Source: Vicugna vicugna
Lineage: Eukaryota
Assembly (NCBI GenBank): GCA_013265495.1
Contig: MU058213.1
Location: forward strand, 6,898,066 to 6,962,065
Direction of reading: 5' to 3'
DNA: 64,000 nt
Of this stretch, positions 35,000-62,949 are shown in pieces; the stretch's first letter is position 1; each line of letters opens with the position of its first letter. The position numbers were made by a program, and so were the translations under genes. The notes under the pieces are model-generated. The model was given only the letters and a program-made list of their open reading frames with translations. It had not been told where the DNA came from and ran no database searches.

Positions 35000-36345
35000 T
35001 TTACATTTCTCTTTTACAAACGCATTGTATAAATTCATGTTTTAGAAAATATTCAAACAATACAAAATGTCTACAGTAAAAACGTGATCAATCTCCTTTA
35101 CTCTCTTATTCCAAGCTATTTGCTATTAACACTGGGGTGCATTTTTCCTGACTTATTCTCTGCATTTATATTGTATGTGCATATAGCCACGTGTAGCAGT
35201 TTTACATACCGGAACCATATTATATTATTAATCTGTGACTGTTTTTGGTTAATTTTTTTTTCATTTTATCTTGGAGATAGTTCTCTTCCTCACCATATAT
35301 TATATGTAAAATTTCTAAAGAACTGCATAATATTCCATAGACTAGATTTATCCTGATTACTTTAGTCATTCCCCACTGATGAAGATTTAGATTATTTCCA
35401 ATTAATTTTTAAGTAATGATAACAGTTTTTTCAGATGGCCAGATATAAAAGCAACATATAAAAAAAGATCAAGAGCTTTCCACATACCACCAATAACTAA
35501 TTACAAAACATATTTTTTTACAAGCCCACTCACAGTAATAGAAAAGAAAACTTGGCAAGAATAGTATTTTAAAAATCTGTAAAATGTGTTGATAGATTTA
35601 TAAGAAGACCAGAATAGTAGAGATATACACCTTTTTTTCCTCCCCTCTTCCTCCTTCCTTTTTCTTTCTCTCTCTCTCCCTCTCTCTCATTTTTTGGCGA
35701 ATTATTTTGAAGCGAATCTCAGTCATCATGTCATTTCAGTTCTACATGCTTGCATAAGCATCTCTAGAAAAGAAAGCATTCTCTTAAATAATCATAGTAC
35801 CATTTTTGCACACACAGGTAAATGTAAACATTTTCTTGAGATCAGCAAGACGTAGGCACATTTCTATAGTTGTTTCAAATGTTTTTGCATTTGGTTCCAT
35901 GGGATCCAAACAAAGTTCACACATTATATTTAGTATCTAAAGTCTCTCAGTCTAAAATTCTCTCTCCTCCCTTCCCTTTACTTTTCCCCTTTTTTCACAT
36001 AACTGACCTGTGAAGAAACCAAGAGTATTGTCCTATAGAAGATCCAGCATTTGGGGTTTGTCTGTTTACTTCCATGTAGTGTCAACTGATGCTTCATTCA
36101 TCCCTCTTATCTCCTCCAAATGGAAGCTGGCTTTAAAGGTTCAGGTTCATGTTCAACTGTCTGGCAAGAATACTTTATAGTCACTACTTCATAACTGCAT
36201 CACATCAGGAGGCACACACTGTCAGATGCTAAGATGTAGCAGTAGGTTTTGGGGATGACAGGCTGCTTCCTCCATTGTAAAGTTTCCAATTAAATTTCAT
36301 CTAATGGTTTCCTCCACTGATGATTATTGCCCAAATCTCTTGTCC
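35000..36345 (-). mobile_element. Old L1ME-like fragments, mostly reverse
   Basis: 'ttagtcattccccactgatgaagatttagattatttcca', 'ttattttgaagcgaatctcagtcatcatgtcatttca', 'tgcatcacatcaggaggcaca' L1ME 3' motifs. Confidence 0.6.
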
Positions 36346-36441
36346 ATTAGAGGTTTAAAATGTGCATTTTCAAAAAAGAAAACAAAATAGTAAGTTTATG
36401 GTATTTCCTATTCCAATATAATCTTACAAGATTCTTATGTA

Positions 36442-37289
36442 GGGCTGTCATCAAAAAAGCAAGAAAGAAGTCTTGGCAAGGATGTGGAGAAAAGAGAACC
36501 CTTGTGCATTGCTGGTGGGAATGTAAACTGGAGCAGCCACTACAGAAAACAATAGGGAGGTTCCTCAAAAAATTAAAACTAGATCTACCATAGGATCCAG
36601 CAATTTCACTCCTGGGTATGTATTTGAAGGAAATAAAATCACTGTCTTGGAGAGATACCTGTACTTCTATGTCCACTGCAGCATTGTTCACAATTCAAGA
36701 TATGAAAATAACCTTAGTATCCACTGACAGATGAATTGAAAAAGAAAATGCGGTGTGTATAAACAATGGAATATTATTCTGCCATAAAGAAGGAAACCCT
36801 GCCATTTTCCAACAATACAGATGGACCTTGAGGGCTTTATGCTAAGTGAAATAAGTCAGACAGAGACAGACAAATGCTACCTTGATGTGGAATCCAAGAA
36901 AAAAAAAAAAACCCAAAACAAACACAAACTCATAGAAAGAACAGATTGGTGATTGCCCAAGGTAGGGGGTGAGGGATGGGGGAAATAGGTGAAACAGATG
37001 AAAAGGTACAAACTTCCAGTTATAAGATAAATAAATTCTGAGGATGTAAAGTACAGCATGTAACTATAGTAAATAATACTGATTTGTAAATTTGAAAGTT
37101 GCTAAGAGAATAGATCTTAACATTTCTTATCACAAGAAAAAAAACTTTGTAACTGTGTGAGGTGATGGACACTAACTAAACTTATTGTGGTTCACATTCC
37201 ACTATATAAATATATATATAAAATCATATTGTGCACCTTAAACTAATGCAAAGTTTTACATCAACTATACCTCAGTAAAGCTGGGAAAA
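36442..37289 (+). mobile_element. L1MA9-like 3' end
   Basis: ORF2 C-terminus '[19 protein letters not shown]'; 3' UTR 'tttgaaagttgctaagagaatagatctt...aaagctgggaaaaa'; degenerate TSD AAGATTCTTATGTA / AAGAGTTTTATGTA. Confidence 0.85.
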
Positions 37290-37394
37290 AAGAGTTTTAT
37301 GTAATTTTTAATGTTTTATAATTATTTATTTTCTGTTATACTGAAAACTGGGTTCCTGACAAAATTAAAATTCGTAGGTGCATCACTCTATTAC

Positions 37395-39597
37395 TTCCAT
37401 GACGACATATGACGTGGACCACCTTTTCACACGCCTATTTGCCATCTGTATATCTTCTTTGGTGAAGTGTCTATTAAATAGATCTTTAACTCATTTTTAA
37501 TCAGGTGGTTTGTTTTCTTATGGTTGCCATTTTGAATAACAGTCCTTTATCAGCTGTGTCTTTTGCAAATATTTTCTCCCAGTCTGAAGCCTGCCTTTGA
37601 ATTCTCTTGACGTTGTCTTTCACAGAGCAGAAACTTTTAATTTTAGTGAAGTCTAGCTCATCAATCACCCCTGTCAAGGACAGTGTTCTTGGTGTTGTAT
37701 CTAAAAGTCACTGCCATACCCAAAGTCATCAAGGTTTTCTCTTACATTATCTTCTGGGAGTTTTACATTTTTGCATTTCACATTTAGGTTTATGATCCAT
37801 TCTGAGTTAATTTTTGAAAAGGGTGTAAGGTCTATGTCTAGATTCTCTTAAAAAAATTTTTTTTCATGTGGCTATCCAGTTGTTTCATCACCATTTGTTG
37901 AAGAGACTAACTCTGCTCGATTGTAATGCCTTTACTCCTTTGTCGAAGATCAATTGACCGTATTTACAGGGTCTATTCGAGGCTCTCTGCTCTGTTCCAT
38001 TGATCTACTTGTGTGTTCTTTCATCAGTATCACACTATCTTGATTGCTATAGTTTTATAATAAGTCTTAAATTTGGGCTTGGCAGTCCTCCAACTTTGCT
38101 ATTCTCCAACATTGTGTTTGCTGTTCTGGGTCTTCTGCCTTTCCATGTAAGCTTTAGAAGCAGTTTGTCAATATCTGCAAAATAAGTTGCTAATATTTTG
38201 ATTGGGATTTCATTGAACCTATTGATCAAGTTGGAAAAAACTGACAGCCTAACTATTCGATATTCCTATCCATGAACATGGAATATCTCTCCATTTATTT
38301 AGTTTGTCTTTGATGTCATTTATCAGAGTTTTATACATATTTTATTAATATATAGATCTTATATATATTTTGTTAAATTTTTACCTAAGTGTTTCTTTTG
38401 GTAGGGAGTGATAAAGTAAATGGTATTGGGTTTCTGATTTCAAATTCCACTTGTTTATTGCTGCTGTATAGCAAAGTGATTGACTTTTTTATGTTGATAT
38501 TGTGTCCTGCAAACCTGCCATAATCACTTATTAGTTCCAGGAGGTTTCCTGTCCATTCTTTTGGATTTTCTAGATAGATAAGCATGTCTTCTGAGAACAA
38601 AGACAGTTTTATTTCTTCCTTCCCAATCTGTATACCTTTTATTTCCTTTTCTTGTTTTACCACATTAGCTAGAACTTCCAGTATAATGTTGACAAAGAGT
38701 AGTGTGAGGGACACCACTGTCTTGTACCTAGATCATAGAGGGAAAGCTTTGAGTTTCTCACCATTAAATATAATGTCAGCTGTAGGGTTTTTGTATATAA
38801 TGTTTATCAAGTTGATGAAGTCCCCCTCTAATCCTAGTTTATTGAGAGTTTTTACCATGAGTGAGTGCTGGATTTTGTCAAATGCTTTTCCTGCATCTAC
38901 TGATATAATCATATAATTTTTCTTTTTTAGCCTGTTGGTATGTGATGGATTACATTAGTTGTTTTTCAACTACTGAACCAGTTTTGTTCACTTGGGATAA
39001 ATCTCATTAGACTGTGGTGAAAAATATTTTCATACATTTTTGGATTCAGTTTACTAATATTTTATTGAGGATTCCTACATCTATGTTCATAAGAGGTATT
39101 TGCTTGCAGTTTTCGTTTCTTATAATGTCTGTCTAGTGTTGGTATTAGGGTCTCACAGTGTGAGTGAGGAAGAATTTCCTCTGTTTCTATCTTCTGGAAG
39201 AGACTGCAGAAAATTGGTGTAATTTCTTCCTTACATGTTTGGTAGTATTCACTAGTGAACCCACCTGGGCCTGGTGCTCTCTGTTTCAGAAGGTTATTAA
39301 TTATTGATACAATTTCCTTCATAGACATGGGCATTTTAGGTTGTCTGTTTCTTCTTGTGTGAGACAAATGGCAAATCATGTCTTTCAAGGAATTGGATCA
39401 TTTCATCTAGGTTATCAAATTTGGGGGCATAGAGTTGTTCATAGCATTCTCTGATTTTCCTTTTATTGTCCATAGGATCTGTAATGATGTTCAGGTCTTT
39501 CATTTTTGACATTAGTAATTTGTGTCATCACTCTCTTTTTTCTTAGTTAGCCTGGCCAGAGGTTTATAGATTTTACTGATCTTTTTAAAGAACCATC
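37395..39597 (-). mobile_element. L1 ORF2 fragment including decayed reverse transcriptase region
   Basis: 'LLFVNIILEVLANVVKQEKEIKGIQIGKEEIKLSLFSEDMLIYLENP' (38385-38717), FADD motif mutated to FSED; multiple frameshifts. Confidence 0.92.
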
Positions 39598-40008
39598 TAA
39601 GGATACAAAGTTGAATAAAACATTTTTTCTGTCATCAAGAAGCTCTATCTAGTAAAATAGAAGGATATGAGAACCACTAACTATAATGAAATATGATAAT
39701 ACATAATGGAGATAAGTATATACATTATTCTGGGGAGAGAGATGAAGGAAGATTAAATGTGCCCTAGGAAGTAAGAAAATGCTTTCTTAAGCTACTCTTA
39801 CTCAAATGTAACCTCTGTTTCTTTCTTTCCTTGATGGTTTCAGGTAGAATTAATTTACTGTTATATCAGTGTTTCCATAACACCTTTTATAGTCACCAAC
39901 CATATTCATTATCACATTTTACTACAGTTTGTTTATAACTCTATCAGTAACATGAAAGTATAAGTTTCTTGAAAGGGTGGTACAGATCTTACTCATTTTC
40001 ATATTTCT

Positions 40009-41337
40009 TTCATTTTTTAAAACATTTTTTATTGAGTTATAGTCATTTTACAATGTTGTATCAAATTCCAGTGTAGAGCACAATTTTTCAATTATACATG
40101 AATATACATATATTGTCACATTTTTTTCACTGTGAACAACCATAAGATCTTGTATATATTTCCCTGTGCTATACAGTATAATCTTGTTTATCTATTCTAC
40201 ATATGCCTGTCAGTATCTACAAATTTTGAACTCCCAGTCTGTCCCTTCCCAACCCCCTCCCCATTGGCAACCACAAGTTTGTATTCTATGTCTATGGGTC
40301 TGTTTCTATTTTGTATTTATGTTTTTTTGGAGGGTTTTTGTTTGTTTGTTTGTTTTAGATTCCACAAATGAGTGATCTCATGTGGTATTTTTCTTTCTCT
40401 TTCTGGCTTACTTCACATAGAATGACATTCTCCAGGAACATCCATGTTGCTGCAAATGGCATTATGTTGTCGTCTTTTATGGCTGAACAGTATTCCACTG
40501 TATAAATATACCACCTCTTCTTTATCCAGTCATCTGTTAATGGGCATTTAGGCTGTTTCCAGGTCTTGGCTATTGTATATAGTGCTGCTATGAACACTGG
40601 GGTGCAGGTGTCTTTTTGAAGTAGGGTTCCTTCTGGATATATGCCCAGGAGCGGGATTCCTGGGTCATATGGTAAGTCTATTCCTAGTCTTTTGAGGAAT
40701 TTCCATACTGTTTTCCACAGTGGCGGCACCAAACTGCATTCCCACCAGCAGTGTAGGAGGGTTCCCTTTTCTCCACACCCTCTCCAGCATTTGTCATTTG
40801 TGTACTTTTGAATGACGGCCATTCTGACTGGTGTGAGGTGATACCTCATTGTAGTTTTGCCTTGCATTTCTCTGGTAATTAGTGATATTGAGCATTTTTC
40901 CATGTGTCTATTGATCATTTGTATGTCTTCCTTGGAAAATTGCTTTTTTAGGTCTTCTGCCCATTTTTGGATTGGGTTGTTTGTTTTTTTCTTATTAAGT
41001 CGTATGAGCTGCTTCTATATTCTGGAGATCAAGCCTTTGTCGGTTTCATTTGCAAAAATTTTCTCCCATTTCGTAGGTTGTCGTTTTGTTTTACTTATGG
41101 TTTCCTTTTTTGTGCAGAAGCTTGTAAGTTTAATTAGGTCCCATTTGTTTATTCTTGCTTTTATTTTTATTGCTTGGGTAGGCTGCCCTAGGAGAACATT
41201 TTTGAGATGTATGTCAGATAATGTTTTGCCTATATTTTCTTCTAGGAGGTTTAATGTATCTTGTCTTATGTTGAAGTCTTTAATCCATTTTGAGTTTATT
41301 TTTGTGTATGGTGTAAGGGAGTGTTCTAGCTTCATTG
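40009..41337 (-). mobile_element. Relatively young 5'-truncated L1
   Basis: Well-preserved ORF2 C-terminus (40355-40918, 41015-41335) and 3' UTR; perfect 18-bp TSD ACTCATTTTCATATTTCT (39991-40008 / 41338-41355). Confidence 0.95.
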
Positions 41338-42702
41338 ACTCATTTTCATATTTCTAGTACTCAAGAATGCCAACAATATAGTATGAGTTTAGTAAATTTT
41401 TTATATGTAAGTGTATACAAATATGGATGGATAAATGAGGTAATATATGACATTATCACAACTATTATATTAACAAAGCTATATTATTTATATTAACACA
41501 ATAATTTGTGCAGATATTAAAGCTATAACATAGTAAACTTGAAAAAAAGAGCCTTAATTGAACATATGTATAACTAGCAATAAGACATTAAAATTCATAT
41601 TATTTATCTTAAATAAATTGTAGACAGTCATTCCTCAGTATGCCTTACAGAAAATCTCCCCTATTCAATCAAACATTTCTCTGCTGTTGAGAATGATCTG
41701 TAAGGCTAAAATTAATATACAATTACTTTTGTTAACTGCATAAAGTTGGGTAATCACTTGGTTATCTGAGAGGCTAACACCACAAATCAAAGTGACCATT
41801 ACAATCCAAAGAAGATGAATTCAGATGCATTTAGAATGACTGCCTTGAGGAAAAACCTCAAAGTCATGCTTAACTATAAGGTGGAGGGAAAATTAGCAAA
41901 GGCTCAAAGGGTAAAACACTGAACTCTGACATTTTAATATTCTGCTGTGCAAAACATGTCTCTAAGAGTCATAACACACACCATTTCTATGTTTCTCCTT
42001 GGAAATGGAATTACCATTCTTGCACTAACTGGAAATGGTAACTTCTTAAATTGTTAATAGCTTCCCCAGGCTTCTGCTTCTTTGCTGTGCAATCATTTTG
42101 GCTTCAAATTATGAAAATATTGCAAAGTGTGCTTATCAGCCTGCAGTCCTAACGCTCTTTCTATACTGAAAATAACTTTTGCACTGGGGAATAAACTACA
42201 GCGGTCCACTTCTGGGCAGCAAGTATTTTAACCTATAAGTCCATTGCACATTTGTACCTAATTTCTTATACTGACAGATAACACATCTAGATTTTAGGCA
42301 TCACAAACTGATTTTGCTAAACACTATGTCACACTTAGCATATGGTAAATCTTGCCAATTGTCTTGAGTTCAATGCTTGATGGGAGTGGAGTCAGAAGGT
42401 GCCTACTGGTAATGAGTATGTAACTGGAGTAGTCATTGAATTGGGGAGGAAGAGGTGGAACTCAAAGTAATAAAAAAAAATGGATCCTGTCACAAGAATA
42501 TAAATGCAACACGCTTCAAGGAATTAAATGAAGAAATGTAGGTGAGGGAAAATAAGATAAGGAACTATTCAGATGAAGTGAGTAGACAAAATGAAAGAGG
42601 ATGACAAATTAGAATTCAGATTTAAAACAGTCCACTGTATGCAAATTGAGATGCACCATGTGACTTAGGAAACTTCTGAAAACCTTTAAAACAATATTAC
42701 AT

Positions 42703-43494
42703 TTAATTATATGGAAATACAAAAGACCCTGAACAGCCAAAACAATCTTGAGAAAGAACAGAGCTGGAGGAATCATGTTCTCTTCAGACTATAATACAAA
42801 TCTACAGTAATCAAAACAGTACAGTACTGGCACAAAAACAGATACATAGAACAAAAGCAAAAATAAACAGATGGGACCTAATAAAACTTAAAAGCTTTTG
42901 CATAGCAAAGGAAATCATTGACAAAACAAAAAGACAACCTACTGAATGGAAGAAGATATTTGTAAATGATATGACCAACAAGGGGTTAATATCCAACATA
43001 TGTAAACAGCTCATACAACTCAACATCAAAAAACCCAAAGAATCTGGTTAAAAATGGGCAGAAGAACTGAAAAGACATTTTTCCAAAGAGGAAATACAGA
43101 TGGCCAACAGGTATACGAAAAGATACCCAACATCGCTCATCATCAGGGAAATGCAAATCAAAACCACAAGATATCACTTCATCTGTCACAATTGCTATCA
43201 TCAAAAAGAACACAAATAACAGATGTTGGCAAGGACGTGGAGAAAACTCTCCTACACTGTTGGTGGTGTAAACTGGTGCAGCACTATGGAAAACACTATG
43301 GAGATTTCTCAAAAACTAAAAATAAAACTACCACATGACTTAGCAATTCCACTCCTAGGTATATATCTGAAAAAGACAAAACACTAATTTGAAAAGATAC
43401 ACACACCCCAATGTTCATGGCAGCATTTTTTACAACTGCCAAGGTATGGAAGCAACCTAAGTGTCCATCAACAGATGAATGGATAAAGAAGTTG

Positions 43495-43545
<51 letters not shown>

Positions 43546-43909
43546 AATACTACTCAGCCATAAAAAGAAAAATTTTGTCATTTGCAGAACAGGGATGGAG
43601 CTGGAGGACATTACGCTAAGTGAAAAGTAAGTCAGAGAAAGACAAATACTGTATGATATCACTTATATATGAAGTCTACAATACAACAAACTAGAGAATA
43701 AAAGAAAAAAGAAAAAAGGAGCAGACTCACAGATACAGAGAACAAGCTAGTTGTTACCAGTGGGGAGAGGGAAGGGGGAGGGGCAATACAGGGGTAGGAA
43801 ATTAAAAAAGGGTTATTATGAGATTATATGAAATTATGTGTGTGAAATGTTTGAAAACTGCAAAGAACTATAGAATTAAACATTAAAAATAAAAAAAATG
43901 TTTGAATGG
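42703..43909 (+). mobile_element. 5'-truncated L1 with an internal ORF2 deletion near 42850
   Basis: ORF2 3' part and 3' UTR; TSD TAAAACA(AT/GC)ATTACAT (42687-42702 / 43910-43925). Confidence 0.85.
43496..43543. repeat. (CA)24 microsatellite inside L1
   Basis: Perfect CA dinucleotide run of 48 nt. Confidence 0.95.
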
Positions 43910-44336
43910 TAAAACAGCATTACATATTGTTTGCAGACACTTGGATATGCACTAATAGCACACAAAATGTGGACAGGAAAGATACATATCAACTCTGGGA
44001 TAATGGTTACCTCTAAGGGGTGGGGAAGGGGAATGTGTTGGAGAGGAATGTTCAACAGTCATTATAACATTCTATTTCTTTTTCAAAAATGAGACAGATA
44101 CAGCAAAAACTAAACTTTTCATGACACTTTGGAGTCTATTACTTTCTGTATATTTGGAATATTTCAAAAATATGAAGAAAAATATTTGAAATTTACATGT
44201 GTAATGTAGTGAGCAAGGTATTTCAAAAACCTTAAAGTAAACAGAACAAGTACATCTTTCAGCCCTTTCTTTTTAACACTGCTTGATGAAAGCCAACAGT
44301 AAATGACTGAAAGAAATGCAATTCAGTGTAAACAAC

Positions 44337-44416
44337 TTGGTGAGGTCGGGAGGTGGTCAAAATGATGCCAACTGGATACCTTTGGTGGTCCCAAGGTGGT
44401 CTGGCTCTTGGTGGTC
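44337..44416 (-). promoter_or_regulatory. Homotypic cluster of GACCACC motifs (GLI-type core)
   Basis: GGTGGTC on + at 44352-44358, 44384-44390, 44395-44401 and 44410-44416; two read GACCACCAA on the minus strand. Confidence 0.5.
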
Positions 44417-44852
44417 TGGCCACCTGAGTAACACAGAGTACCATGTTGGATAAGCAACAGACAGCCCTGGATTCAAAGTTTTATTCAATGCCAAGAACTT
44501 ATTCCTTCTGTTAAGTTCAGCCAAGCTGGCACAGAACAGCTGTCCTCCTCAGAGGGTTGTGGAGCATGACAAAAACAAATGCCGAAATAAAAGGTCCCCC
44601 AAGGCAAACAGCGCTGAGGGTACCTGTGAGCAGAGACTGCCTAGGGGCAAGGCACCTAATTTCCATGCAGAGTCAGATCACTGCCATTTTAGAGTTACTT
44701 TCTTTTTCAAATAGACAATTTAATCAATGATGACTATTAATATGTTTTTGTATGAAGTTTAATAAACGCACAAAACAAAGAAGAAGTTTGGGCAACTACT
44801 TAAATATTACACAACAGAGCATAAGAGCACAAAGTCATTACTGTATTCTTTT

Positions 44853-44935
44853 TTTTAATGAAGGTACTAGGAGTTGAACCCAGGACCTCGTGCACGCTAA
44901 GCATGGGCTCTACCACTGAGCTATATCCTCACACC
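44853..44935 (-). mobile_element. vic-1-type SINE, short form (tRNA region plus A-tail only)
   Basis: 'ggagttgaacccaggacctcgtgcacgctaagcatg...ctaccactgagctata'; perfect 17-bp TSD CATTACTGTATTCTTTT (44836-44852 / 44936-44952). Confidence 0.9.
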
Positions 44936-45543
44936 CATTACTGTATTCTTTATTGCTATTTATTTTCATTGAAACATCAGCAAATGAATAAAAATGTTCA
45001 CCACCACCTGGGCATTTTTAAGTAGATGTAACCAAACTGCCACCTTGGTCATTAAAATAATAACATTGCTAAAATTCCAGAAAAGCAGCCATAGTTCTAG
45101 AGATCTGAATGCATACAATCTTCCTATAACCCTCCCTGGCTCCTGCTACGAAGGCAAAGGGATGATGTTCCTATTTTCCCTTCCATCTGCTCTTTTTTGC
45201 CCATTTCCAGACTTCCTGTGATAATCACTTTAACTGGCTGCACATATATAGTGATTGGAAGGGGAGCCATGTGATTTTCCTCGCTGTCCATCCCCGTTCA
45301 CTATCCCCGAGAATGACCATAACTATATGAACTAAATTCTCTAGGGGAGCCCTTTAGAAGCATTCAGACAAGTGGCTTCACCCTGGAATGTTGTGAATGC
45401 TAGAGAAGCCAGGAGGTATGAGCCTACTGGGAACCCCAGGTGCAGTCCCCTCTCCCATTTACCAAGATTCTTGCAAAGGCCAAAGAATGCTGAGATGTAC
45501 AGGGTGTCTAGACCTTCAAGATCTTGTGCCTCTAGTCTGGACC

Positions 45544-45742
45544 ACTGGTTCTCGGAGTGTCATCTCCAGACCATCAGCATCCGCATCACCTGGGAACGTG
45601 TTAAAAATGCAAATTCTCAGCCTTCACTCCAGACCAGATCATGAATCAGATAAATCAGAAACTGGTGATGGGTATCAGCAATCTGTGTTTTAACCAATCC
45701 TCCAGGTAATTCTGATGCTTGCCAAAGTTTGAGGACCACAGG
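45544..45742. mobile_element. MER5A MITE, near full length
   Basis: 'cagcatccgcatcacctgggaacgtgttaaaaatgcaaattctcag...tctgtgttttaaccaatcctccaggtaattctgatgc...aagtttgaggaccac'. Confidence 0.88.
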
Positions 45743-45764
45743 TTATTCTCAATTTTGGAGGTGG

Positions 45765-45950
45765 AACAGTGTAGAGTGTAGATTCTGGAGCCAGACTTTC
45801 TGACTTCAAATTCCAGGTCTTCCAGTAACCATATGCTATTGCACAAACTGATTCACCTTTTCTATGTCTCAATTTCCTTATCAGTAAAATGGGCTTAATA
45901 GTAGTATAGCTAGCCATTGGTTGGTTGTAAAGATTAAAAGAATTGTTTTA
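45765..45950 (+). mobile_element. MIR SINE
   Basis: 'ttctggagccagact...tctcaatttccttatcagtaaaatggg...ggttgtaaagattaaa'. Confidence 0.7.
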
Positions 45951-46620
45951 ATAACTGTTAACTACTCTTATGAAGTTAAACTACTTATTGAGGCATCTTC
46001 TCCTAAGGAAGGAAGACTTGGCTCAAGTTCTGTCTTGGGCAAACCCCTTTACTTTGCTGAGACACAAGGACTTCATCTGTAAATGGGACAATTACATCTG
46101 AACCACTTGCATCACTGGGCTGGTATAAGTTCTCTGCAAACTGAAAGAGCTATCTAACGCATGGTAGCAAACATATGTCACCTTCATGATTATGATTTTT
46201 TTCCCCCATCAGGTGCAGTGCAAATCCAATGAACTGTCTCTTTCAGTTTCCTTCCACCAGCTGATCATTCTACCTCCTTTTCAGTGAGCACTCAATTCAT
46301 ACTGAGAACAGCTGCCAGTCTACAAGCTATTTTTCTAGTGTTTTCTATAGTACTTGTTTCGAATCCAGACATTCTCTCTTCTCTTCACTGACATCATTCT
46401 CGCTAAATAAATATTTATTATTCCCCCAGTGGTTTCCATCTGAGTTGAAAATATGCCATAGTTAGCAGAATGACTTACCTGTTAATATCCTGCCAAACTT
46501 GTATAGAGTCATTATACTGAAGACCCATTACAATAGTAACCATTGATTGAGCAATCATTCAGAATACAGTACAGTGCACATACCCCATTTCATTCACTCC
46601 TCAAAACAACCCCATGAAGC

Positions 46621-47065
46621 TGAGACAAGAGGGAAGGGGACAGGGCACAACCATTAAAACAACAACTCAGCAATTGAGAATAGGACAGAAACTGGTTAAA
46701 ACCAAGACGGCAGAAGGTTTGACTTCCAGTAGACCTTGAGTCTCCTTCTAGGCTCATTGTAACATACTAGCGTGGTAAATGACACACCCACAGGCATGAT
46801 GACAGTTCCGGGGCCCAATTCTTGAAAATTTCCACCCCTCACCTCAAATAGTTGGAATAATCCTCCCACTTGCTGGCATATGAAATTACCCAGTCCATAA
46901 AAACTAACAACTCCATACCCTGGGGCCACCTCTCTTGCCTTCTGAGAGAGCCGGCACTCCGTCTATGGAGTGTGTGTCTCCCTGAATAAATCTACTTTCA
47001 CTTTACCATGGCTTGCTCTTGAATTCTTTCCTGTGAAAGACAAGAATTTACATTCTCCAGCAACA
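46621..47065 (+). mobile_element. Class I ERV solo LTR, MER41-like
   Basis: TG...CA termini, 4-bp TSD AAGC, AATAAA at 46985-46990, MER41-like motifs 'gacacacccacag..catgatgacagtt', 'ctatggagt', 'aataaatctactttcactttac...tgaattctttcctg'; splits a reverse MIR. Confidence 0.85.
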
Positions 47066-48059
47066 AAGCAAGCACTAAATAAGAAAAGCAAGGCTGCGAG
47101 AAGGTAAGTAACTTGGCCCAAGCTTCTCCAGCTAGGGAGCTCTCTTTGATTCTTATAGTTCTCTCAATGACCCACCTTGCATAATAGAATCATCTTGCAG
47201 TGGAACTCTTTTGGCACTTTGAAAACTAAACCTACTAACACAAGGACAAAGACAAATGAATCAGCTCATATCACACGCCTCTCAGTGAGAAAACCTGTAT
47301 TTGAGTAGAGTTTGAGTGATATTTTAGGAATGAACGGCCAAGAAGCATTTCATCCTTCTCCACTTACTACCTCTGTCACCAAGAAGATCAAGGCTGTGCT
47401 TAGATGGGTATCTAGCTTGAGCTAAATAAACCAAAATTAAATTACCACTCTCATCCCATTACACAACTATTGGGTTTTTTGTTTGTTTGTTTAAACTTAA
47501 CCACATTGATTTATCTGTTCCTCACCCTCATCCCTGGGGCACGTGTTTTTTAACCAACAATTGCAATGACATCACTTGTCTGTTCAAAAACTTCTGTTAT
47601 TGACTCTCTTCGATTTATTTATTTTCCATATGGCTTTCATCACTGAAAGGGGTCAGTATGCAGAGATTCACCTGGAAAAGTCTAAATATCTACAAAACCT
47701 TAAAGTTTATTTAGAAATGTGACCTACATAAGAAAATCCTATTTACTCAAAACATCTTCTTAGGATGCGAGTGAAAAATGTCCAATAATCACCAAAGGAG
47801 TGTTCATAAAAACCGACGACTGCAAGCCTTTAAATAGTGCCAAAAGATCTCTCAACCAACCTCTTTACTTGACAGATGCCATCTCTGAGGGCTTCCAGAG
47901 ACTCACCCATGATCCTTCAACTGGTGGAAGCCATACTTAAAACTCAGTTTTATTTAAATGGGTTTCAGGCTTTTTCTTTGTTACAGTGCCTTGAAAAACA
48001 AATCTATGTAGTTTCCCAAGCATACAGACCTGAGAACTGCCCTCCAGAAATATCTGAAT

Positions 48060-50340
48060 AAATTAATTTTCTAACTCAAATGCAAATGAAGTGTAACTCA
48101 GTAGATCTTTTCATCCCAAGCCTGAATTCTGTTGAGGTTCACAGTGCATTTGCTTCAACTTTTGAAGTAGATTTTGTGAAGATCCTCAGCTGTTACCCAC
48201 AGATGGTATGAATTTATGGAGTGCTAGTCTGGATAAAAACAGCATTATAACATAAAATGCATCATTAATACTTTAAAACCCAGCATGATTTATATTTATA
48301 TAAATAACATAAAAGAAGCCAATTAAACCAAAGTCACTGGAGTGTAAATAACATAAAAAACTTATTGTTCTGTAAGCTACTGAAAATAAACTAATAATGA
48401 AAGTATTTATCATACGTCTAAAAACCAAGCAGGTATGAGTGGGTTAAGCAGACTGTAGAGGGAACCGTTTTTATTTCTCTGACATTGTTTAATGCAGGCC
48501 CAACATTTTCATCCAGTTCAGATCCATTTAAAATGTGACATCATCTCTGAAAGCTGCCTTTTGCCCACTTGAGTAATTAATAATTTAAGTGTAACAAGGA
48601 CATCTTGATTCAAACACTTGGTAATCTGACTAGGAGAATATTTAAAATTCATTACAGTACATTAAACTTGCACTGAACAGTTAGCTTCATTGCAAAATAA
48701 ATAAACAGCCAATTTGCTTTGATCAGCAAAAATTCTGATAAAATCAGCAAAACACCAATTAAATGTGAAAAATGTCACCTACCGTAGTTATTCTAATGGA
48801 ACATGGACTTAAAGGAAGGAACTGATTCAATGTTTATTTTCAGACCAGCTGTGGCTTCCAAATGTACATCATTTCACTTTTTGCCAGTGTAGCTAGCTCC
48901 TACGAGGCCCCTGCATTGATCTGATGGCTGAACAATTTGTATTACATAATAAGGCCTCTCTATGGGGGTTACAGTTGAATTCCCTTAATTTCCTGGCAAA
49001 TCACTGTTTCCTTTAAGTATTTTAGGAGTCTTCCCATCTCCTGGAGTACTGTCAACTGATCGAGGTCACAAGCTGTGACCAAATGACCCCTGGTCCTTCC
49101 TGGCATGTGTGAACACTGTCCTGGGTGGAGGCAGTCTCTCTTGGAAGCATCATGACTCTTTGATCTTGCTTCTTGTCATATTAGTCATTTTTGTCGCTCA
49201 GCACAATGCTGCTATCCGTCCAGAATCATTCCGACTGCCGTCACAGCATGGCAAGTCCAAGCTTACGACGTGTTTGTTCATTTCTAGTACTTAACCTAGT
49301 GCTGAGTGCCAAGTGCCTTGCAGATGCTCAATGAATCGGTGCTAGAAGGACCAATAAGTCCCACCCGAGTGTCAGTCTCTTTCAGCTAATTCTATGGCAC
49401 TTGCTTGGACCTCCTGATCTCAGTATCCAGAAATCATGTCTTGGGATCCCAGTGCCCCTCAAATAAAGGGAATAATTATGGTGCAAGAGGAAAAACTGCT
49501 TAAAATTTTACTGCATGCCCTGTTTATGGAATTAACAACCAAAACAAAAAGAACAAAAAAATAGCGTTGCTTCAAATTGCAAGATGGGTTTTCTTTCCTC
49601 ATCTGCCTTTTCTTCCATGTAGGCAGTTTCTTTTTAACAGAAACCATGAATTCATTTCTAACGAGCATCGTGGAATCTCTGTCAGTTCTGGCCACTTCAG
49701 AAATCAGTAACAGGAAAGGAATGTGCAAAAATGAAAATAATTGTGCTGTGTCGTGGGCGCTGTTTTCTTCTTTTGAATTTTTTCAAAATGTTGTTTCATC
49801 ATCTTTTCAATAATTACACACAGCAGATATTTAAGAAGAAATGTTATGATGAGATCCTCAGCATGGAACCAGGCCCATTTGCAAATGAATTTGCTCATTA
49901 TCCAATTAGAAGATGGAGCCCCCGTTTAAGCAAACCCACAGTTCAAAAATACCCAAATTAAATTTAAACACCTCCTGGCAACTCATAATGAGTCTAAAAT
50001 TAAACGAAATAACAGCAATTTTACTGAGTTCAAAACAACTAATTGTTTGGGAGCTGCTCTCACTCATTTGAAATTTTGTCCAATTATTACTATTGCATTT
50101 CATACGCTGAATTTATATTTTTGCCCTACTTAAGAGATGCCTTTTAATAATAAGGGAATGGGCCAGTCCATTTGCCAATAAGATGAATTCTGCGTGTGTG
50201 CCTTAACTTATACACTGCAAAACTCAACCTTGAATACATCCTTATGAATTTAAGACAGTATTTGTATCCTTAAAGAAAAGTTAGCGAGACACATGATCTT
50301 ATCTGCAATCGGTCATTTATTTTCATTTAATTAGAATGCA
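48060..50340. promoter_or_regulatory. Largely repeat-free AT-rich block; candidate cluster of conserved enhancers
   Basis: Dense TAAT/ATTA; octamer ATGCAAAT at 48080-48087; palindrome CATTTGCAAATG at 49876-49887; only a small L2 piece near 49250-49340. Confidence 0.45.
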
Positions 50341-50585
50341 CAGTGTAGAGAAATCAGAAAGGTCTTCGTGCAGACCCCAGCCACCACCCTCCACCACTGC
50401 CTGTTTGCTGAGATCTTATGCAAGTACCTTAACCTCTCCAAGCTTAATTTTCCTGTATTTATAAAACGGAGTAACAATATACCTACTTGGCAAGATTGCT
50501 GTGAAGACTAGATGATCATAAACGTAAAACATGCAGGAGAACTCTTGGCACATAGTAATCACTCAATAAATTCCAGCCACTATAA
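50340..50585 (+). mobile_element. MIR SINE
   Basis: 'gcaagtaccttaacctctccaagcttaattttcc...ttggcacatagtaatcactcaataaat'. Confidence 0.8.
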
Positions 50586-50664
50586 TTTTAGTCACTACCA
50601 GGTATGCCATGTTTAAAAAACACCTTCAGGCAAGTTAATAAGATGCAGGGCCTTGGTCCTCAAA

Positions 50665-50795
50665 AGGGTTGCCAGATGTAGCAAATTAAAATACAGACTG
50701 CCACGTATCTGGGATATACTTGTACCAAAAAATTACTCAATGTTTATCTGAAATCCAAATTTAATAGGGCTTCCTGTATTTTATCTGGCAATTTA
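50665..50795 (+). mobile_element. MER53 palindromic MITE (internally deleted)
   Basis: 'agggttgccagatgtagcaaattaaaatacag...tgtttatctgaaatccaaatttaa...cctgtattttatctggcaa'. Confidence 0.85.
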
Positions 50796-52075
50796 GTGCT
50801 TAAGTTCTGGTACTTAAAGATCTTACAATTGTATATTATCCTTTAAGTACTTGGGAAACAAGCAAAGGGCAGGTTAGAAGTGAAATGTTTAGATTACTGC
50901 CTTCATCCTTCACTTTATTTTGGGCATAGGGCAGAAAGTTTCCACTGTCACTCTGGATGTCCTTGGGACACCATGACATGCAATCAACGTCACCTGTGTT
51001 GGCGGATAATTCAGCAGCTGTGATGCTCTTGTTTATAGTACCTTCAGTTCCACCGACATTTTTACTTGACTAATTCACTGTCTCATACCAGGCAGGGGTG
51101 GGGCGGAAATCATTCAAACGCAATGCGACTTCAAAGTTCAGTTACTTGGCTGGAAAACAGCAGATAAATTGATAATTGCAAATGGCCTGAAATCTGAATG
51201 ATTCTTTTTCCACTTCAACTAAATGTATTGAGCACACCCAAATAATTTAAAAGTGCTGAAAATCAGCAGTATTGGGGATTAATGAAAGCAGTATATTCAC
51301 TCTGCTGCATTTATTATTTTTAAATTATAGTTCTCCCACTTGAAGGAATGCAATGAGGTTGAAATGAAGCAATTTTGTTGTTAAATATTGTCATTTAGAA
51401 TGAAATGCATGTGACTCTGGAACTGAAAGAGCACAAGCTGTTGCTGTTTTCTGTTTATCATTAGTTATTTTCAAGTTTACCAAAAAAAAAAAAAAAGAAA
51501 AAAAGTAACAGGGAAGTCCTCTGTCTCAATGATCCCACAGGGGACTAACCAGATTTAGCACAAAAGTTGCTCAAGACCAAGGAGACAGAGATGGGCATTC
51601 AGATCCCGGGCAGCTCCCCTGGGGTCCAGGGCGGTTCTCTCCTGTGGATTGGATGTAACCTAGTCCCTCCAACAACTGAGTGGGGTCGGAGAGGGGAAAC
51701 AGTGGGAAAAGAGAGAGGACTGGACATCGTGATTTTTTTGGGCAAGGCCCTACCCTCACTGAGCTTACTTCCAAGTGGAGGAGACAAACGCAAAAGTGTT
51801 TTATGTCAGATGATAAGAAGCATTATAAAAGGAGAATTGGCTTTTTGGCTGTGTGGCTTTAGGCAAATTACTTATCTTCTCTGAGCTTCATTTCCCTTAT
51901 CTGAAGAATGGAAGATACTATCTGCCATGCAGGGTTCTTGTGAGGATGACAAATGATGTATGCATAGGGCACACAGTTCCTGGGGAAGAGAAGTAGTCAA
52001 TGTAACGGTTTTTACTATTCTTTTTATCATTGTTATTGTTTGCTATGTCTCATTAGAAATGGAAACCAACAAAGG

Positions 52076-53030: not shown

Positions 53031-55811
53031 GTTATGGATGAGACTGATCAGGAAAACCTAGTTTGGTTTCCACAAGCCAGTTGGCCAGGAAATGCTGGCC
53101 ACACACAGACCTCCAGTTCTCAATTCCTGCCCAGCTGGACCCACTGCCTACAAAGTTCACTCTGATGACCCTGGGCATGTGTCTCAAGGTCTGAGAAAGT
53201 GCCACTTTGGGGCCCTATTCTTAAGAGGAGCAAACACTCTCCCAGCTACTACCACTGCCTTTATCCAGCCCCACTGACAACTGAAAGGTGATGCTCCCAC
53301 AGCCACCTGAATGCTGCACTAAACGTAGGATCTTACAACAGGAAGAGAACTTCCAGCTTTCCTCGTCGTCCAGCTCCACCTTTGCTTTCTACTTCAGCCG
53401 TTTTCCTTCTTAACTTCTCATATCTATCCTTTGTCATATTAAATGATTATCACAAAATTCTGTCCCTGCAAGCATCTAGTCCACAACCTGACCTCCGGTA
53501 TTTGTCCACTGTCTCCACTTCTTCGTCATCATGCGGTGCAGGTAACTTAGTAAGATGACTTTCAGGAGACGTCTAGGTTATTTCAAATCTTTTTTTATAG
53601 CTTGACTAGATTTTTAGTATCTGCAAATTTTTCTTCCCCTAGAGTTCTTGAAAGTGCTTTTACGAATAGAACAGAATTATTTAAAACAATCAAATTCATT
53701 TTTAACATGCCAGCACTGTATTAAAGTGGTTCTTGGCTTCAGTAAATTGTATCTCACACTTAAGTAGTGTAAACATTTCTTTCATTTACATTACTTTCTT
53801 CTATTTTCCTTCTATATAAAGTGTAAAGATCAACTCCAGTAAATTAACCTGTTAGAATGTATTCATTCAATGCTGTGTGGGGCTTCTTATTTTTAAAGTT
53901 CTTTTTATTCTTTTCAGTAAATATTTTATCACTGTGGCAATAAGTAGATTAGATACTAGGATCTTTTTCCTGGTGTTGCTCCCATCAGAATTAAGCCTGA
54001 TACTGTCACAATACTGGGGTAAAAACAGTTCCCTCTGATAGAGCTTCTAAAAGTTTAGCAGGAGCAGCTGAAGATCTGGGAACAATGGTTCCTCGAACTT
54101 TCTGCACAAGGACTTATTTATGCATTATTGATGGCTTTTATCAAGACTTCTGAGCAATTTCCAGTGTTACTGACAACACAAGAGCCCACTAAGGAGAAAA
54201 GACCCATTTAGACTAGAAGTACTCAACATTAATTCCTTTAACCATTTGAGGAGTATACCAAGGTGATGAGTGCACAGTTAAGTTATGGGATTCAGCTGAG
54301 ACATCCTTCAGGGAGGTGAAGCCTCCTCTGCCTTTTGCTATGATTTTTTCCCAAACTCCAATGCTTACCAAGGGTTTCCATTTCCATGAGAAATGGCCAC
54401 CATGTCACATTTCCTTGGCTTGAGATCCTTGGCTACAACTCTATGATTCTCAGATCTGGTTTTAGCACTCAAAATGTAAGTTGTAAAAAATTAGGAAAAA
54501 AAAACCTCACAAAAACCAACCAACCAAACACACACCGACTCTCAGCCTAATCATCTAGGCTCGTTGTATCTAGAAGACCTGGCTTACAGAAAGAGTGCCA
54601 TGTTGCATGTCCACCCTACAGAAGCACTAACTTACAGAAGCACAACTTCCCATGGTAATGATCTACCTTTAAAAAAAGTGTTACCTGAAAGTGGAAGTGC
54701 TCCTGAACAGTTCCTTTTGGAAGATGAATCCCAATTTCCCAGGAGTTCTTTCCATTTCACAACAAAAATAAGATACAGAGCATCCAAATGACATCCCCTC
54801 CCACCCCCCAAATATCCTGGAGAGTAGAACGGAAGCTCATGATAACGCAAACACCATGAAAACATCATGTATTGATTAGTAAGGAAAAATCAAGTTTCCT
54901 CTCCATGCTGTTCAGTTACCCTGCTCTTTTCTTAATAGTTCTACATTCATAAAAGGCCAAAGGACTCTGACCTTGACAAGCTAACTGAGCAGGAAAAGGC
55001 AATCATGTGTACAAGGCTGTCACCCACTCCACAAATTATGATAAAATATACCTCGGCATCAGAAAAAAGAGTTGCATATCTCCAGTGACATCCACAGTAG
55101 TACGTTTAAGGATTTGAATAGAACAGTAATTTATTTTGCACTAACATGTTTTATGGTTATTATCAAGCATTATGTCTTCAGAGACTGAAAGGTGATGTTT
55201 TTATGGACTCCGGCTCCTTCTGCATTATCGTCACAGCTCAGAAATGATCTGCCTCTCTTTTTCTGTAATTCCCCCCTTCTTACTCCCTACTTTTGCCCCA
55301 CATTTAACAAAGCAGCTGTTTTTGTAAAGGAAAAGAGGGGAAAGTAAAATGAATCCGCATTACACAAAGGGCACAAAATGAACAGATTTCCAACCCCGAA
55401 CAGTTTCAAAATGAATGATTATCTGGCTAATTAGTGAAATAAATAATAATAATTGCCTGTCCCTCCTCATTAGAGCCCTTTATAGTAAATGAAACTCCAG
55501 TGCAGAGTTCCAGCAGGCTGGTTTCAGAGCACACGACTCAGTTCTGAGTGCGGAAAAAAGAGAGATGACCCTTGCCAAGACGCCCGCACGCCAACCCCTA
55601 AAACAGAAGAATGAGAAAAATGGGGGCTACAGGATCTGCAAGGGAGATATCTGGGGGCAAAGAGGGAATATTTCTGGTTTCCTTCCATGCTTAGCGATTA
55701 TACAATGTTCCAGGCATCCAAAAATGAGAGCCAAGAGCTATGGACACAGACCACAGGGTCCAGAACATAGAAGAAAGGATTCTCACTTATTCAAGGATCA
55801 TCTATGCAGCA

Positions 55812-55990
55812 GTGACCACGTTCTTAAAGTCTGATCTATTCCATCCCCATCATTTACCCGAGGTGCTTGTTCAATCTGTAAGTTTTAGGCTCCTTCCCAG
55901 ACTCATTGACTCAGAAGCTTTGGGGTTGGGCCCAGGGTCTGCATGTTCAACAAGATTTCCAGGTGTTCAGTATGCACATGAAGCAGACCA
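55812..55990. mobile_element. MER5-type MITE
   Basis: 'tacccgaggtgcttgtt...cccagactcattgactcagaa...gggcccagggtctgcatgtt.aacaag..tccaggtg'. Confidence 0.65.
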
Positions 55991-57179
55991 CCTCTGCGAT
56001 AGTCAGTGGGTGGTGAGACTGGGCAATGCTGGGAAATAAAGTACGTTAACTGCCTTGTGGGGAAGATGCTGTAGCAGGCAATCTCACTGGGCCACCCTCT
56101 GGTAGAGATTTTTCCTGTGGTTCAGCCACAACATCCTCTCACCAGGGCTCCTCTCTATACCAGCCTTGCCACAACATCTGAAATTAGCAAAGAACCTCAT
56201 TGCTGTTCTGCGTCTGGAACCAGCCCAGCCAAACCTATTACTCAACCCTGAAAGCATTTGATTGGCTTCTAATGAGGCAGCAGATCAGCTTTTAGGGGTC
56301 TGTTCTCAGTGTGATGTATGAATGGAGCTCCCATTAATGTTAATCGGTGGGGAGTTCCCACTGCTCAGGCAACTGTATTGTAAAGCTCTTGCTACTTGAT
56401 GCTCAGATCATCTTTTTTCTGTGTTTTGAAGTCCATCGGTGTTCAGGCACTAGCAGGAAATGTGAATAAAAAGACTGTCATTTAACCTTCTCCCATTTTC
56501 TGAATAAACCTCCTTTCAAGACTCTCTGAGGCCCACATCCATGCTTCCCACCTCCACAGTGACACATCTGACCCCACTGCATTAAGTAATTAACTAATGT
56601 CGCTATAATGTGCTTAGACCTGTTCAGACAGAGTTGTTTCTTGATCTTGAAAACTTATAGTCTAGCCTAGGAGACAGATGGATAACTATCACACCGTGGT
56701 ACGCAAAGGACAGACTCAGAAGGAATCTTGGGTGGAGGTTCAAATGATGAAGAGGAGATGCTAAAGAGAAGAAATGATGGGCAAGAGAAGATGTTTCAAA
56801 GGACAGCATTCCAGCAAGGGAAGGAAAAGCTTACACCACAGCCAACTTAAGCCAACAGCTCCAACTTGTCGGAACCTCCTACAGGAGGCACAGTGCCCAG
56901 GACCCAATCTACTTTTAGGCGCCTGCACAAATGTTTTTGTTCCAATTTACTTTCAAAGCAAAAGCAAAAAAATGAATCCAATTTTAAGGAATATATAATC
57001 ATGAATCTAGCCTGGATTACACTCATCTTTATACTAATGATGTCATAAAATAGAATGCTTAATTTTTTTTAATTGAAGAGGAGGCCCATGAAGGCAAAAA
57101 CATCTAGGGTCCTCAGAAGTCATAATGCCTAAGTCATAAGCCTTGGCTGACACAAAGATACAGGTGAGCAATGAGGTCT

Positions 57180-58609: not shown

Positions 58610-59000
58610 TGTTTAAAAAATGAGACAACAGGCTTCAAAACGGAGTCACTTACGCTAAGTCCCATGTTACCAAACCAAGAATTAACTTAATTACAGTTTT
58701 GACTCTCCCAGAAATAGAATCTTAAACCAGTCAATCAGGAATTGACTAATCAGCACTTGTTAGTTCATCTACCTGACAGACCGCTGTCAACCCTGAAAGG
58801 AAAGTAACTGTGTGATAATCAACCTGCTCTTCATCTCCTATAACTTCCTTGTTCCCGTTCTCATCCACCTATTTAAAGTCTTTCATTTTATCCAGCTCCA
58901 ACGAGCTCCTATCTCCAAGATGGACCGCTGCCTGATGCTAATCAATTTTGTTCAAATAAACTCTTAAAATGTTTATTATGCCTCAGTCTATTTTTTAACA
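58610..59000 (+). repeat. ERV 5' LTR
   Basis: TG...CA, 391 bp, alignable to 63124-63506, AATAAA near 58955. Confidence 0.9.
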
Positions 59001-59004
59001 GTTC

Positions 59005-59022
59005 TGGTGTCAGAAGAGAGAA
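59005..59022 (+). other. Primer binding site, tRNA-Leu(CAA)-like
   Basis: TGGTGTCAGAAG matches the complement of the recalled tRNA-Leu(CAA) 3' end (TGGTGTCAGAAGTGGGAT), 4 nt after the LTR. Confidence 0.75.
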
Positions 59023-59379
59023 CTGAAGAGGACCCCCGACATTCCCTGGGAGCAACGAGCAATAGGGCATGAGCACCTGGGATCCCCTTGAGCTCGCTGC
59101 CTCTGGAGGTGTGGGTAAGCCCCTCTTGGATCCTAGGTCCCAACGTTTTGCATTATGAGCTTGCAGACATTATTTTAGCATTTCTTTTTCCAGACTGGGT
59201 CCAGAAATTGGCTGGACTCAGACCGATTCTGACTTAAACCAGTTTCTGAGGTTGGACTGGTCTGACTTAGAAACCAGACTGGGTCCAGGGTCAGACTGAG
59301 TCTGACTTTTAAGCTGGACTAGGTCCAGTGTGAGGCCTCGGGTGAATAAAATTTTGTTTTAAGGCTGAACAAGTAAGTT

Positions 59380-59475
59380 AACCTTACCAAAGATAATCTT
59401 GAATTACAATGGTCACAGTGGAGAACTTTAAACTTAGGTAAGCTTATCCATTTATGAGGTGCCCAAGAGAAAAAG
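59380..59475 (+). pseudogene. gag: gag matrix remnant
   Basis: Translates NLTKDNLELQWSQWRTLNLGKLIHL*GA, resembling class I ERV matrix (TKD..LxWPxWG..KL..L). Confidence 0.6.
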
Positions 59476-61368
59476 GAGTCTCAGCCAAGCACTTCCCATG
59501 AAGAGCACAGAGAAAATTACTCTTCCTCCTCTATAGTTTCTGGTGACTAGGATGAGACCTGCTGGGACGCCCACTCTCCCCAGACTTGCAGATGGGATCC
59601 TGGGAAAACGAGCAGAAGCCAGCAAAGGGTAAGAACTCACACCAAAGTCAGTCCTCCCAGATCTATCTACAGGGCCTGAGAGAGGATGATAAAATTTCGT
59701 GTTGTTCCTTTCTTTCGAAATCAGATTGGCAGGCAAAAAATATAAAAATTAGATTTTTAAATTATGACTCATAAGTGTGCTTTTGGGTACCCATTGGTTG
59801 TTGATCCGTTCTCTCCTAGGGACAGTGTTGGCCCTTGTTTGACTTCTTTTATGTCCTGAGAACTTGGCTTGACAGCCGTCACTCTGGGGCCCCTAAAAAT
59901 ATGGCTGAACAGAAATGTGGGTTGTACTCTATTCGTGGTAGTGTCCTACAGACTGCTGGCAACTCTCAGAGGAATTATCTAAATCTTCCTTTCTTTTAGT
60001 TATCTTGGGAATTGCTCTGGATCTTGAGAATGTATTATCTTTTGCACCCGATTTGAGGACTCCTCTTATGTTCATGAAATTGTTCAGTACTGCCAGGAAT
60101 ACTTCTACTTGTCCTGGCTGAAACCTGACAAGATATTCAAAAGGATTTTTTTTTTTAAGTAACTCTATGGTCAGAAGTTGGCCAAACAGGAAGCTGATAT
60201 TTAGAACCTAAAAGGAATTTTTGTTTAAGCCTTCTCCTCTAACCTAAAATGAAGCTGCGTACCCAAGTGAAAACATTCTGAAGCCTTTTGTGGGAGGATT
60301 TACTTAAACATTCCAAAGACACATAGCTTGAAATCTAGAACACAGGAATCTTATGACTGCCATCTTAGTTGAAGATAAAATGCTGAAACATCAATTAATG
60401 AACATAGGTTTATATACATTTGGTTTCCTTTTACAGAGGAATTAAAGATATTTGGGTCTGTTAGTAAATGTGTTTTGGGCCAAAATGGAAAATTTACTAA
60501 TAGGAAGAATATGCTTCCAGAAATTATGAAATGTATTTATAAATTTGTCATTCCATGGAATGCTAGTTTAATAGACAGTCCACAACTGTTTATTTCTTAG
60601 TTTTCACTAGGAATAAAGAATCCTAAGGATTCAAAATTTTAATCAATACACGTAATTAAAATTTTGAGTCTGATCAAAATTATCATGTGTCACATCATCT
60701 TTATCAGGTCTTTGAGTGCTCAAGAAAACCGTCTTCTTAGTATTAAAAGAGATAACTTTTGTTCAGAACTATATAACCCTCTGTATTTGCCTTTAAAATT
60801 TAAAAACCAAAATGTAATTTGGTTAAACAGATAATTCAGTATTATTTCAGAATAATCCATGATCGTAGTTGGTCAAATATTCAAACTTTTTGGCTTTTTG
60901 ACAAATTCGCAAAGCCAAATTCTAAAAAGAATCTTTTTGACCTCAAAGTAACTTTGCGATTTCCCAAAGAATCCCTAGAAAATCTCAAAAGAATTGTCTC
61001 TCACCTTGTAAAAGAAAGATGTTAAACCAATTAGGTGTATTCAGTATGTTAAATTACATGGGAAGCACTGTCAAATACGTGACAATAAACCCTTTTAAGT
61101 TTTATTTATCTGGATGCATGTTATTAAAAACAGAGTTCTAGAAATTGTAGAAAATTCCTAAAAATCTGGTATGTCCTGGAATGTTATCAGTCATAATTCC
61201 AGTTATTATTTTAAAATGTTGTATGTGAGAGAAGCCACCAAATTTCCTTATCAATTCCATTATAATGAACTCTGATCAGAACTTTAATCATGGGCATGTT
61301 TAAATCTTCTGTCATTTACAGACAGTTAATATCTTACTCTGATGCTTTCACAAAAGTGAGATTCACAG

Positions 61369-61506
61369 AAAGGACCCTATCATGTACTCTTGACCACTGA
61401 CACCACTGCCAAATTTCAAGATGCTGAAACTGAGTTGTATTTTTCAAAAACTGAAGAAAGCTCCACCTGATATCTGTTCCTATGCAAACACTGGAGAACT
61501 CAAAGA
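61369..61506 (+). pseudogene. pol: Integrase C-terminal (GPY/F module) remnant
   Basis: KGPYHVLLTTDTTAKF... then LKKAPPD...TGELK, as at the end of gamma-type integrase; no RT or RNase H recognised upstream. Confidence 0.75.
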
Positions 61507-61516
61507 CAAATTAACT

Positions 61517-61808
61517 TACTTACAAAACAGACCACAGACTCATGTACACAGAAAACAAACTTAATGGTTATCAGTGGGGGAAGAGGGTAAAAGGGGATAA
61601 ATCAGAAGTTTGAGACTTGCAGATACTAACTACAACATATAACATAGATAAACAACAAGCACAGGGAACTACATTCAGTATCTTGTAGTAATGTATAATG
61701 AAAAAGAATTATCAAAACAAATATATATATATATGACTGAAACATGATGCTGTACACCAGAAACTGACACAATATTGTAAACTGACTATACTTCAATTAA
61801 AAAAAAAT
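61517..61808 (+). mobile_element. 5'-truncated L1 nested in the ERV at the pol/env junction
   Basis: Same 3' UTR family as 6632-6983; A-tail; TSD CAAATTAACT (61507-61516 / 61809-61818). Confidence 0.9.
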
Positions 61809-61939
61809 CAAATTAACTAGGAAGAGAAGTAGTTGACATCAAGGTAAACTGCTTCCTCCCAAGACATTAAATCAGGAACATTTCTTTCCATTCCTCTTTC
61901 CCTCTCTGATCATCCTCTTCCTAATTTTTAAGCACGAAG

Positions 61940-62900: not shown

Positions 62901-62949
62901 TATCAGAAAAGAGAACGACTGACGTAAAGAATGTTAACCCATCATTGTG

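Follow-up and report, generated by a model that had tools for sequence, protein, structure and literature searches.

The window examined here (the whole 64-kb stretch of DNA) carries, on its minus strand, four copies of the heptamer GACCACC within 65 bp, and this array, together with two GTAAACA words at 44237 and 44328 that we take to be FOX-type motifs, may represent a non-coding, low-affinity GLI/FOX distal enhancer module, a reading that we favour tentatively and with somewhat less than even confidence. On our own judgement of the odds, this module ranks ahead of a neutral relic, a ZBTB7-type cluster, the remains of a transposon and a small exon, in that order. Because the array appears to be largely shared with other mammals, it is a likely candidate for an ordinary weak-affinity enhancer module. 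The preliminary description of this DNA had proposed a Hedgehog-responsive GLI cluster; what endures of that proposal is that the sites are weak but GLI-like and that the array occurs in two other lineages, whereas constraint on the cores is not significant, C is lacking at position 8 and ZBTB7B shares the 7-mer.

The array comprises GLI-like site 1 (44350..44358, GACCACCTC, MSS 0.785), site 2 (44382..44390, GACCACCAA, MSS 0.897), site 3 (44393..44401, GACCACCTT, MSS 0.785) and site 4 (44408..44416, GACCACCAA, MSS 0.897), all on the minus strand and all with the 9-mers given by the preliminary description, whose four GGTGGTC copies we confirmed as minus-strand GACCACC at 44352, 44384, 44395 and 44410. 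The near-copy that it placed at 44337-44347 is also there; its 9-mer (44339..44347, minus strand) has an MSS of 0.71, below the list threshold of 0.75, lies outside the Ci/GLI list and is confined to the window. Back to back with site 4 stands an inverted weak GLI-like 9-mer (44418..44426, plus strand), which scores 0.70 in the window against 0.80 in both other lineages and overlaps an E-box present in the window only. The description of the locus as unique sequence holds at the scale of the window, in which 44200-44844 has no second copy. That the flanks are mostly different is borne out by the 4-base flanks of all six site pairs, in which 11 of 48 positions match and a full flank is common to one pair, but between the copies at 44395 and 44410 the identity runs to 11 bp and not 7.

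Since GACCACC is not enriched window-wide (7 copies seen, 5.25 expected, 26 of 100 shuffles reaching 7), only its clustering is unusual. It is the sole 7-mer of the whole window with four non-overlapping copies per 65 bp, and widening the span to 69 bp adds only CA microsatellites as four-copy 7-mers. Of 300 Markov simulations (orders 2 and 5), none placed even three GACCACC copies within 65 bp, and four copies of any 7-mer arose in 2 of 150 and 0 of 150 runs. A scan of the window with the published Ci/GLI matrix yielded 91 sites with an MSS of at least 0.75, and among these the array ranks first as a cluster in spans of 70, 100 and 250 bp, equalled in none of 200 GC/AT-flip nulls and in 144 of 20,000 uniform placements; over 500 and 1000 bp it is surpassed by a looser group near 55986. 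The clustering is beyond chance and non-random. Helical phasing of the core gaps was not significant (P=0.06). Looser groups of weak GLI-like sites at 55986-56990 (six in 1 kb) and 15874-16120 (four in 250 bp) are probably background.

The surrounding DNA is non-coding, about 40% GC, and contains four tRNA-like SINE heads (presumably of camelid type), L1 pieces and a retroviral relic. No gene was found in the 64 kb: Pfam searches returned one reverse-transcriptase relic above cut-off in six frames of 36001-50400 and two sub-cut-off matches among all 184 open frames of at least 62 aa elsewhere, a length below which exons could escape, and a rough exon scan of the window gave nothing recognisable. 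Nor could a Hedgehog target gene be tied to the window, which counts against the GLI/FOX module. As separate observations, a tRNA-derived SINE on the minus strand (44836-44954, target-site duplication matching at 18 of 19 bases) lies 430 bp from the cluster, and a decayed endogenous retrovirus occupies 58627-63476, with LTR-like copies (58627-58967 and 63139-63476) that are 72.7% identical over 348 bases and a broken internal sequence between them. A long AT-rich stretch at 47600-51500, with few evident repeats and, by eye, an abundance of homeobox-like words, is a possible location of conserved non-coding elements; CpG observed/expected exceeds 0.5 in one 500-bp tile only (4501-5000), and the CpG-rich stretch ahead of this tile (4200-4700) could be a weak promoter or enhancer.

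Orthologous DNA was read through gene calls at the protein level. One open frame, searched against 1.84 billion proteins, gave three matches; P0002 (an algal SFI1 repeat protein) and P0003 (an unrelated repeat protein) were dropped as chance matches. The orthologous block, 44065..44638, is covered on other mammalian contigs by P0001 with P0004, P0001 being a gene call made with TGA=W on a contig of 2 kb and aligning, across one frameshift, with 44065-44638 at 75-77%, and by P0005 with P0006, which represent a second, related lineage. Because the frames shift between lineages, these calls are not real proteins, and since wobble positions are unreadable in them, some changes could be hidden. When P0001 was used to scan for related loci, no viral locus emerged and the single bacterial match was due to chance, and word-indexed protein searches with two further frames gave no match. 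From these protein-level read-outs we infer that two other mammalian lineages carry the array; the calls, which cover the orthologous block, show the array to be old, and we regard it as firm, at the level of such read-outs, that it is not a recent camelid duplication. Absence of the motifs from other mammals, which the preliminary description had named as grounds against its proposal, is therefore not what we find for the array, and is what we find for the near-copy, which has three fixed differences and appears in neither lineage. The estimated divergence from the window, 0.11 for P0001 (0.08-0.145) and 0.145 for P0005 (0.11-0.18), would fit either a close, neutrally diverged relative or a distant one in which the whole block is constrained.

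Where two calls run in different frames over the same DNA, 159 of 173 bases are fixed without conflict, 20 of them differing from the window. Site 4 falls in this reading, with all nine bases fixed and equal to the window, and site 3 has no visible change in either lineage. Sites 1 and 2 have none in P0001; in P0005 changes are seen at the critical C4 in site 1 and at position 9 in site 2 (whose positions 4 and 7 are unreadable wobble), losses that count against the GLI/FOX module, and the block boundaries of the alignment place a 1-bp indel between sites 3 and 4. In P0001 the spacers, near-copy, E-box and a candidate splice acceptor are changed and the core bases show no visible change; a two-rate model of its cores against spacer and near-copy residues gives 2dLL=5.0 (simulated P=0.07), in favour of the module. 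Over both lineages the cores have changed visibly once, where 2.8-3.4 changes would be expected (P=0.15-0.23), which counts against it, and the 9-mers twice, where 3.6-4.3 would be (P=0.19-0.31); cores and FOX motifs taken together have 1 against 4.2-5.1 (P=0.037-0.075), which counts for it. Divergence in the cluster segment (d 0.125 and 0.168) is not lower than in its flanks (0.08-0.145), again a point against the module; these flanks include 44065-44195, perhaps an old L1 end. Motif-level constraint is thus, as far as the gene calls can be read, only suggestive. Among 111 codons in a shared frame (window 44065-44407), 9 are changed in P0005 only, 3 of these on or beside the cluster, and 1 in P0001 only, with no conflict between P0001 and P0005 over 44408-44580; this strong asymmetry of rate may reflect a faster lineage or relaxed constraint.

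Turning to the sites themselves, all four 9-mers belong to the 211-member Ci/GLI list of PMC4692483, and C4 and C6, described as essential in GLI sites in the available part of PMC2830928, are intact in 4/4 window sites, both of which speak for the module. The in-vivo comparison set was the mouse GLI binding motif library of 548 12-mers (PMC4765071 Table S1). The 12-mers of sites 2 and 3 match low-confidence entries exactly (for two of four given the core, P=0.022, in favour), that of site 4 is one base off a medium-confidence entry and site 1 has no entry; none of the four is a high- or medium-confidence entry and two lie outside the library, which weighs against. By eye, the whole window holds five library matches (9609, 15874, 20424, 44380 and 44391). 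The outer flanks follow GLI preferences in 12 of 16 rule matches (P=0.004), which supports the module, and in 9 of 12 when position 14 is left out (P=0.045). Of the three matches at C14, two are not independent, because the next copy at 11-bp pitch supplies them, a point on the other side. As the preliminary description had rightly said, none of the four is the perfect consensus: all lack C at position 8, a base that is invariant among high-confidence in-vivo GLI motifs in the part of PMC4765071 available, so that the array has no high-confidence motif, a further point against. The best GLI motif of the window lies elsewhere, in a second GLI-like pair at 20389-20435, where the 12-mer at 20424 is a high-confidence library entry and the site at 20389 is weaker; this pair is about 250 bp from 19840-20170, a motif-rich stretch that resembles a conserved element by eye.

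Published experience with GLI clusters bears on both sides, in each case within the portion of the source available. Against the module count the single site found in 86-91% of motif-bearing mouse GLI peaks (PMC4765071), the greater number and higher quality of motifs in Hedgehog-responsive mouse limb enhancers (PMC6986877), the GLI motif present in 14% of non-responsive fragments (a preprint) and the activity of 4 of 17 top and 0 of 18 low-score fly clusters; of top fly clusters tied to known or suspected targets, 80% were active. For the module counts the requirement for weak sites in fly ptc enhancers (PMC4887206), in some tissues of which optimisation of those sites lowered activity.

The first GTAAACA (44328..44334, plus strand) lies 16 bp from site 1, and the second (44237..44243, plus strand) lies near an indel; neither shows a visible change in either other lineage, and both were picked out before any orthologue comparison. 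Two such words within the 120-bp flank of the array have a P of about 6e-4, given 13 in the window and with GTAAACA being one of 14 motifs tried, which speaks for the module. We prefer them as co-factor sites, on the 5' side, to the stretch 44460-44800 suggested by the preliminary description. SOX-type heptamers do occur in that stretch, at 44472, 44484, 44723 and 44774 (4 against 1.1 expected); two could be checked in the other lineages, where the one at 44484 is changed and the one at 44472..44478 (minus strand), presumably TCF/SOX-like, is compatible with conservation, itself weak evidence. In the available parts of the literature, a neural classifier of GLI gives high weight to Fox and Sox k-mers, FOXC1 is listed with Gli2 in a review table, and a SOX9-GLI-FOXA network is described in cartilage. 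We suggest that a FOX factor might open the site at the two GTAAACA motifs, that several GLI proteins would then bind the four sites weakly and additively, and that the output would follow Hedgehog level in FOX-expressing tissue.

The most serious competitor, which we hold to be possible but less probable than the GLI/FOX module, is that the array is an ancient, functionless TGG/CCA-rich patch left by slippage and short duplications and now drifting, its match to GLI being a coincidence. In keeping with this, the patch has the highest TGG/CCA density of the window, sites 3 and 4 have 11 bp in common at a 15-bp pitch, positions 8-9 of the sites are background-like, and conservation has no local peak, with a critical base broken in one lineage; near-perfect short tandem duplications of 16-21 bp occur at 9797-9836, 11296-11333 and 54617-54648, and units of a similar kind make up an unrelated simple repeat (L099). 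However, the cores and FOX motifs have changed less than expected, Tandem Repeats Finder (score 30) reports no array at the cluster, and flanks as dissimilar as those observed, which are at random level, are rare in duplication simulations, albeit under a simplified model. In that neutral model (2-4 tandem duplications and 10-45% decay in 12 settings, with the most favourable word taken per simulation), the median number of flank matches in simulated clusters with four exact 7-mers was 24-28, and 11 or fewer were seen in 0.09-1.1% of such clusters, which favours the GLI/FOX module. The simulations make a neutral origin of the array less probable. A pattern scan of 12 of the 64 parts of a metagenome collection yielded 119 loci, none of which aligned to the window outside the motif itself; the best of them was a simple repeat.

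We consider it unlikely that the four copies form a functional homotypic cluster for ZBTB7B/C, that is, a repressive or accessibility element and not a Hedgehog sensor, even though the GACCACC core is found in 4/4 sites and the evidence from clustering and conservation applies equally to such a cluster. The ZBTB7B consensus GCGACCACCGAA, as given in the available part of PMC5449588, contains the exact 7-mer of all four copies, and so would account for sites that are perfect over positions 1-7 yet in no case have C at position 8; in the part of a preprint to hand, moreover, Gli1/2 and Zbtb7b/c motifs are grouped in one motif cluster. The 5' GC of that consensus is, however, present in 0/4 sites, the in-vivo core of ZBTB7A is G(a/c)CCC as far as the available part of PMC9932118 reports it, and the outer flanks of the sites follow GLI rules. 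It is formally possible, if quite improbable, that both factors are involved in a detuned Hedgehog sensor, in which positions 1-7 would be kept and C8 dropped, the next copy at 11-bp pitch (two pairs) would provide the distal C14, a GLI activator and a ZBTB7 repressor would compete behind a FOX pioneer pair, and the weak flanking sites would have turned over, one lineage losing the module. The GLIS/ZIC-type motif is GACCCCC, which was not found in 44195-44845. A reading of the 11-bp pitch as a DR5 retinoid element was dropped by eye, every half-site being mismatched to the consensus.

Very improbable, in our view, is an origin in the internal or subterminal repeats of an old transposable element. 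DNA-transposon ends typically carry short, irregularly spaced direct repeats, to which the array bears a likeness, and the window is rich in repeats, but the array has no second copy in the window and no flanking terminal inverted repeats, and six frames over 44330-44430 give no Pfam match. Least credible of all is that the minus strand holds a small exon or a structured RNA. The cluster is spanned by open frames of 27-73 aa, and by rough matrices an AG at 44425-44424 ranks among the best 4% of the AGs in the window and a GT at 44379 among the best 10%, but such splice sites are weak, the candidate acceptor AG is GG in both other lineages, frameshifts separate the lineages and leave no conserved frame, 0 of 6 frames (44330-44430) match Pfam, Rfam gives no match and folding is unremarkable (z -0.8 to -1.3), for all of which reasons we think it unlikely.

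If the GLI/FOX module is real, it would be an uncharacterised distal Hedgehog-responsive element of unusually clean design, with four sites failing at the same position, and would offer a compact natural test of low-affinity GLI clusters against consensus sites in the activator reading, as well as of how GLI and ZBTB7 compete for a single word. The class is well known, and as no target gene is tied to the array, the gain for biology is modest. A literature search by sequence stretch and subject, supplements not included, found no published description of the element.

Finally, we compare the array with known systems, drawing in each case on the available parts of the sources. The ZBTB7B/C motif GCGACCACCGAA (PMC5449588 Table 1) has the same 7-mer, but at the array the 5' GC is missing from 4/4 sites and the 3' flank varies. 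The BCL2 promoter site GACCACCAA, called functional in a review (PMC2930663), is identical to the 9-mer of sites 2 and 4, albeit as a promoter site; this precedent is not clean, because Table 1 of PMC2830928 gives a 2G variant as the functional BCL2 site instead of GACCACCAA. With the mouse in-vivo GLI library (PMC4765071) the array shares two exact low-confidence entries and a third site one base off a medium-confidence entry; most bound regions there have a single motif, and the array has no high-confidence site. The closest comparison is with Hedgehog/GLI enhancers that have clustered non-consensus sites, namely fly ptc (PMC4887206), promoters of the TGM3 and IL1R2 type (PMC2830928) and predicted clusters (PMC4692483). 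Unlike these, the array is much tighter (four sites in 67 bp) and all on one strand, its mismatches all fall in positions 8-9, and it has no site at or near the consensus. Like these, it is non-coding and consists of several sub-optimal sites with C4 and C6 intact, scoring 0.785-0.897 on the same matrix, and by this analogy it may work as the known clustered weak-site Hedgehog enhancers do, as a candidate member of their class.
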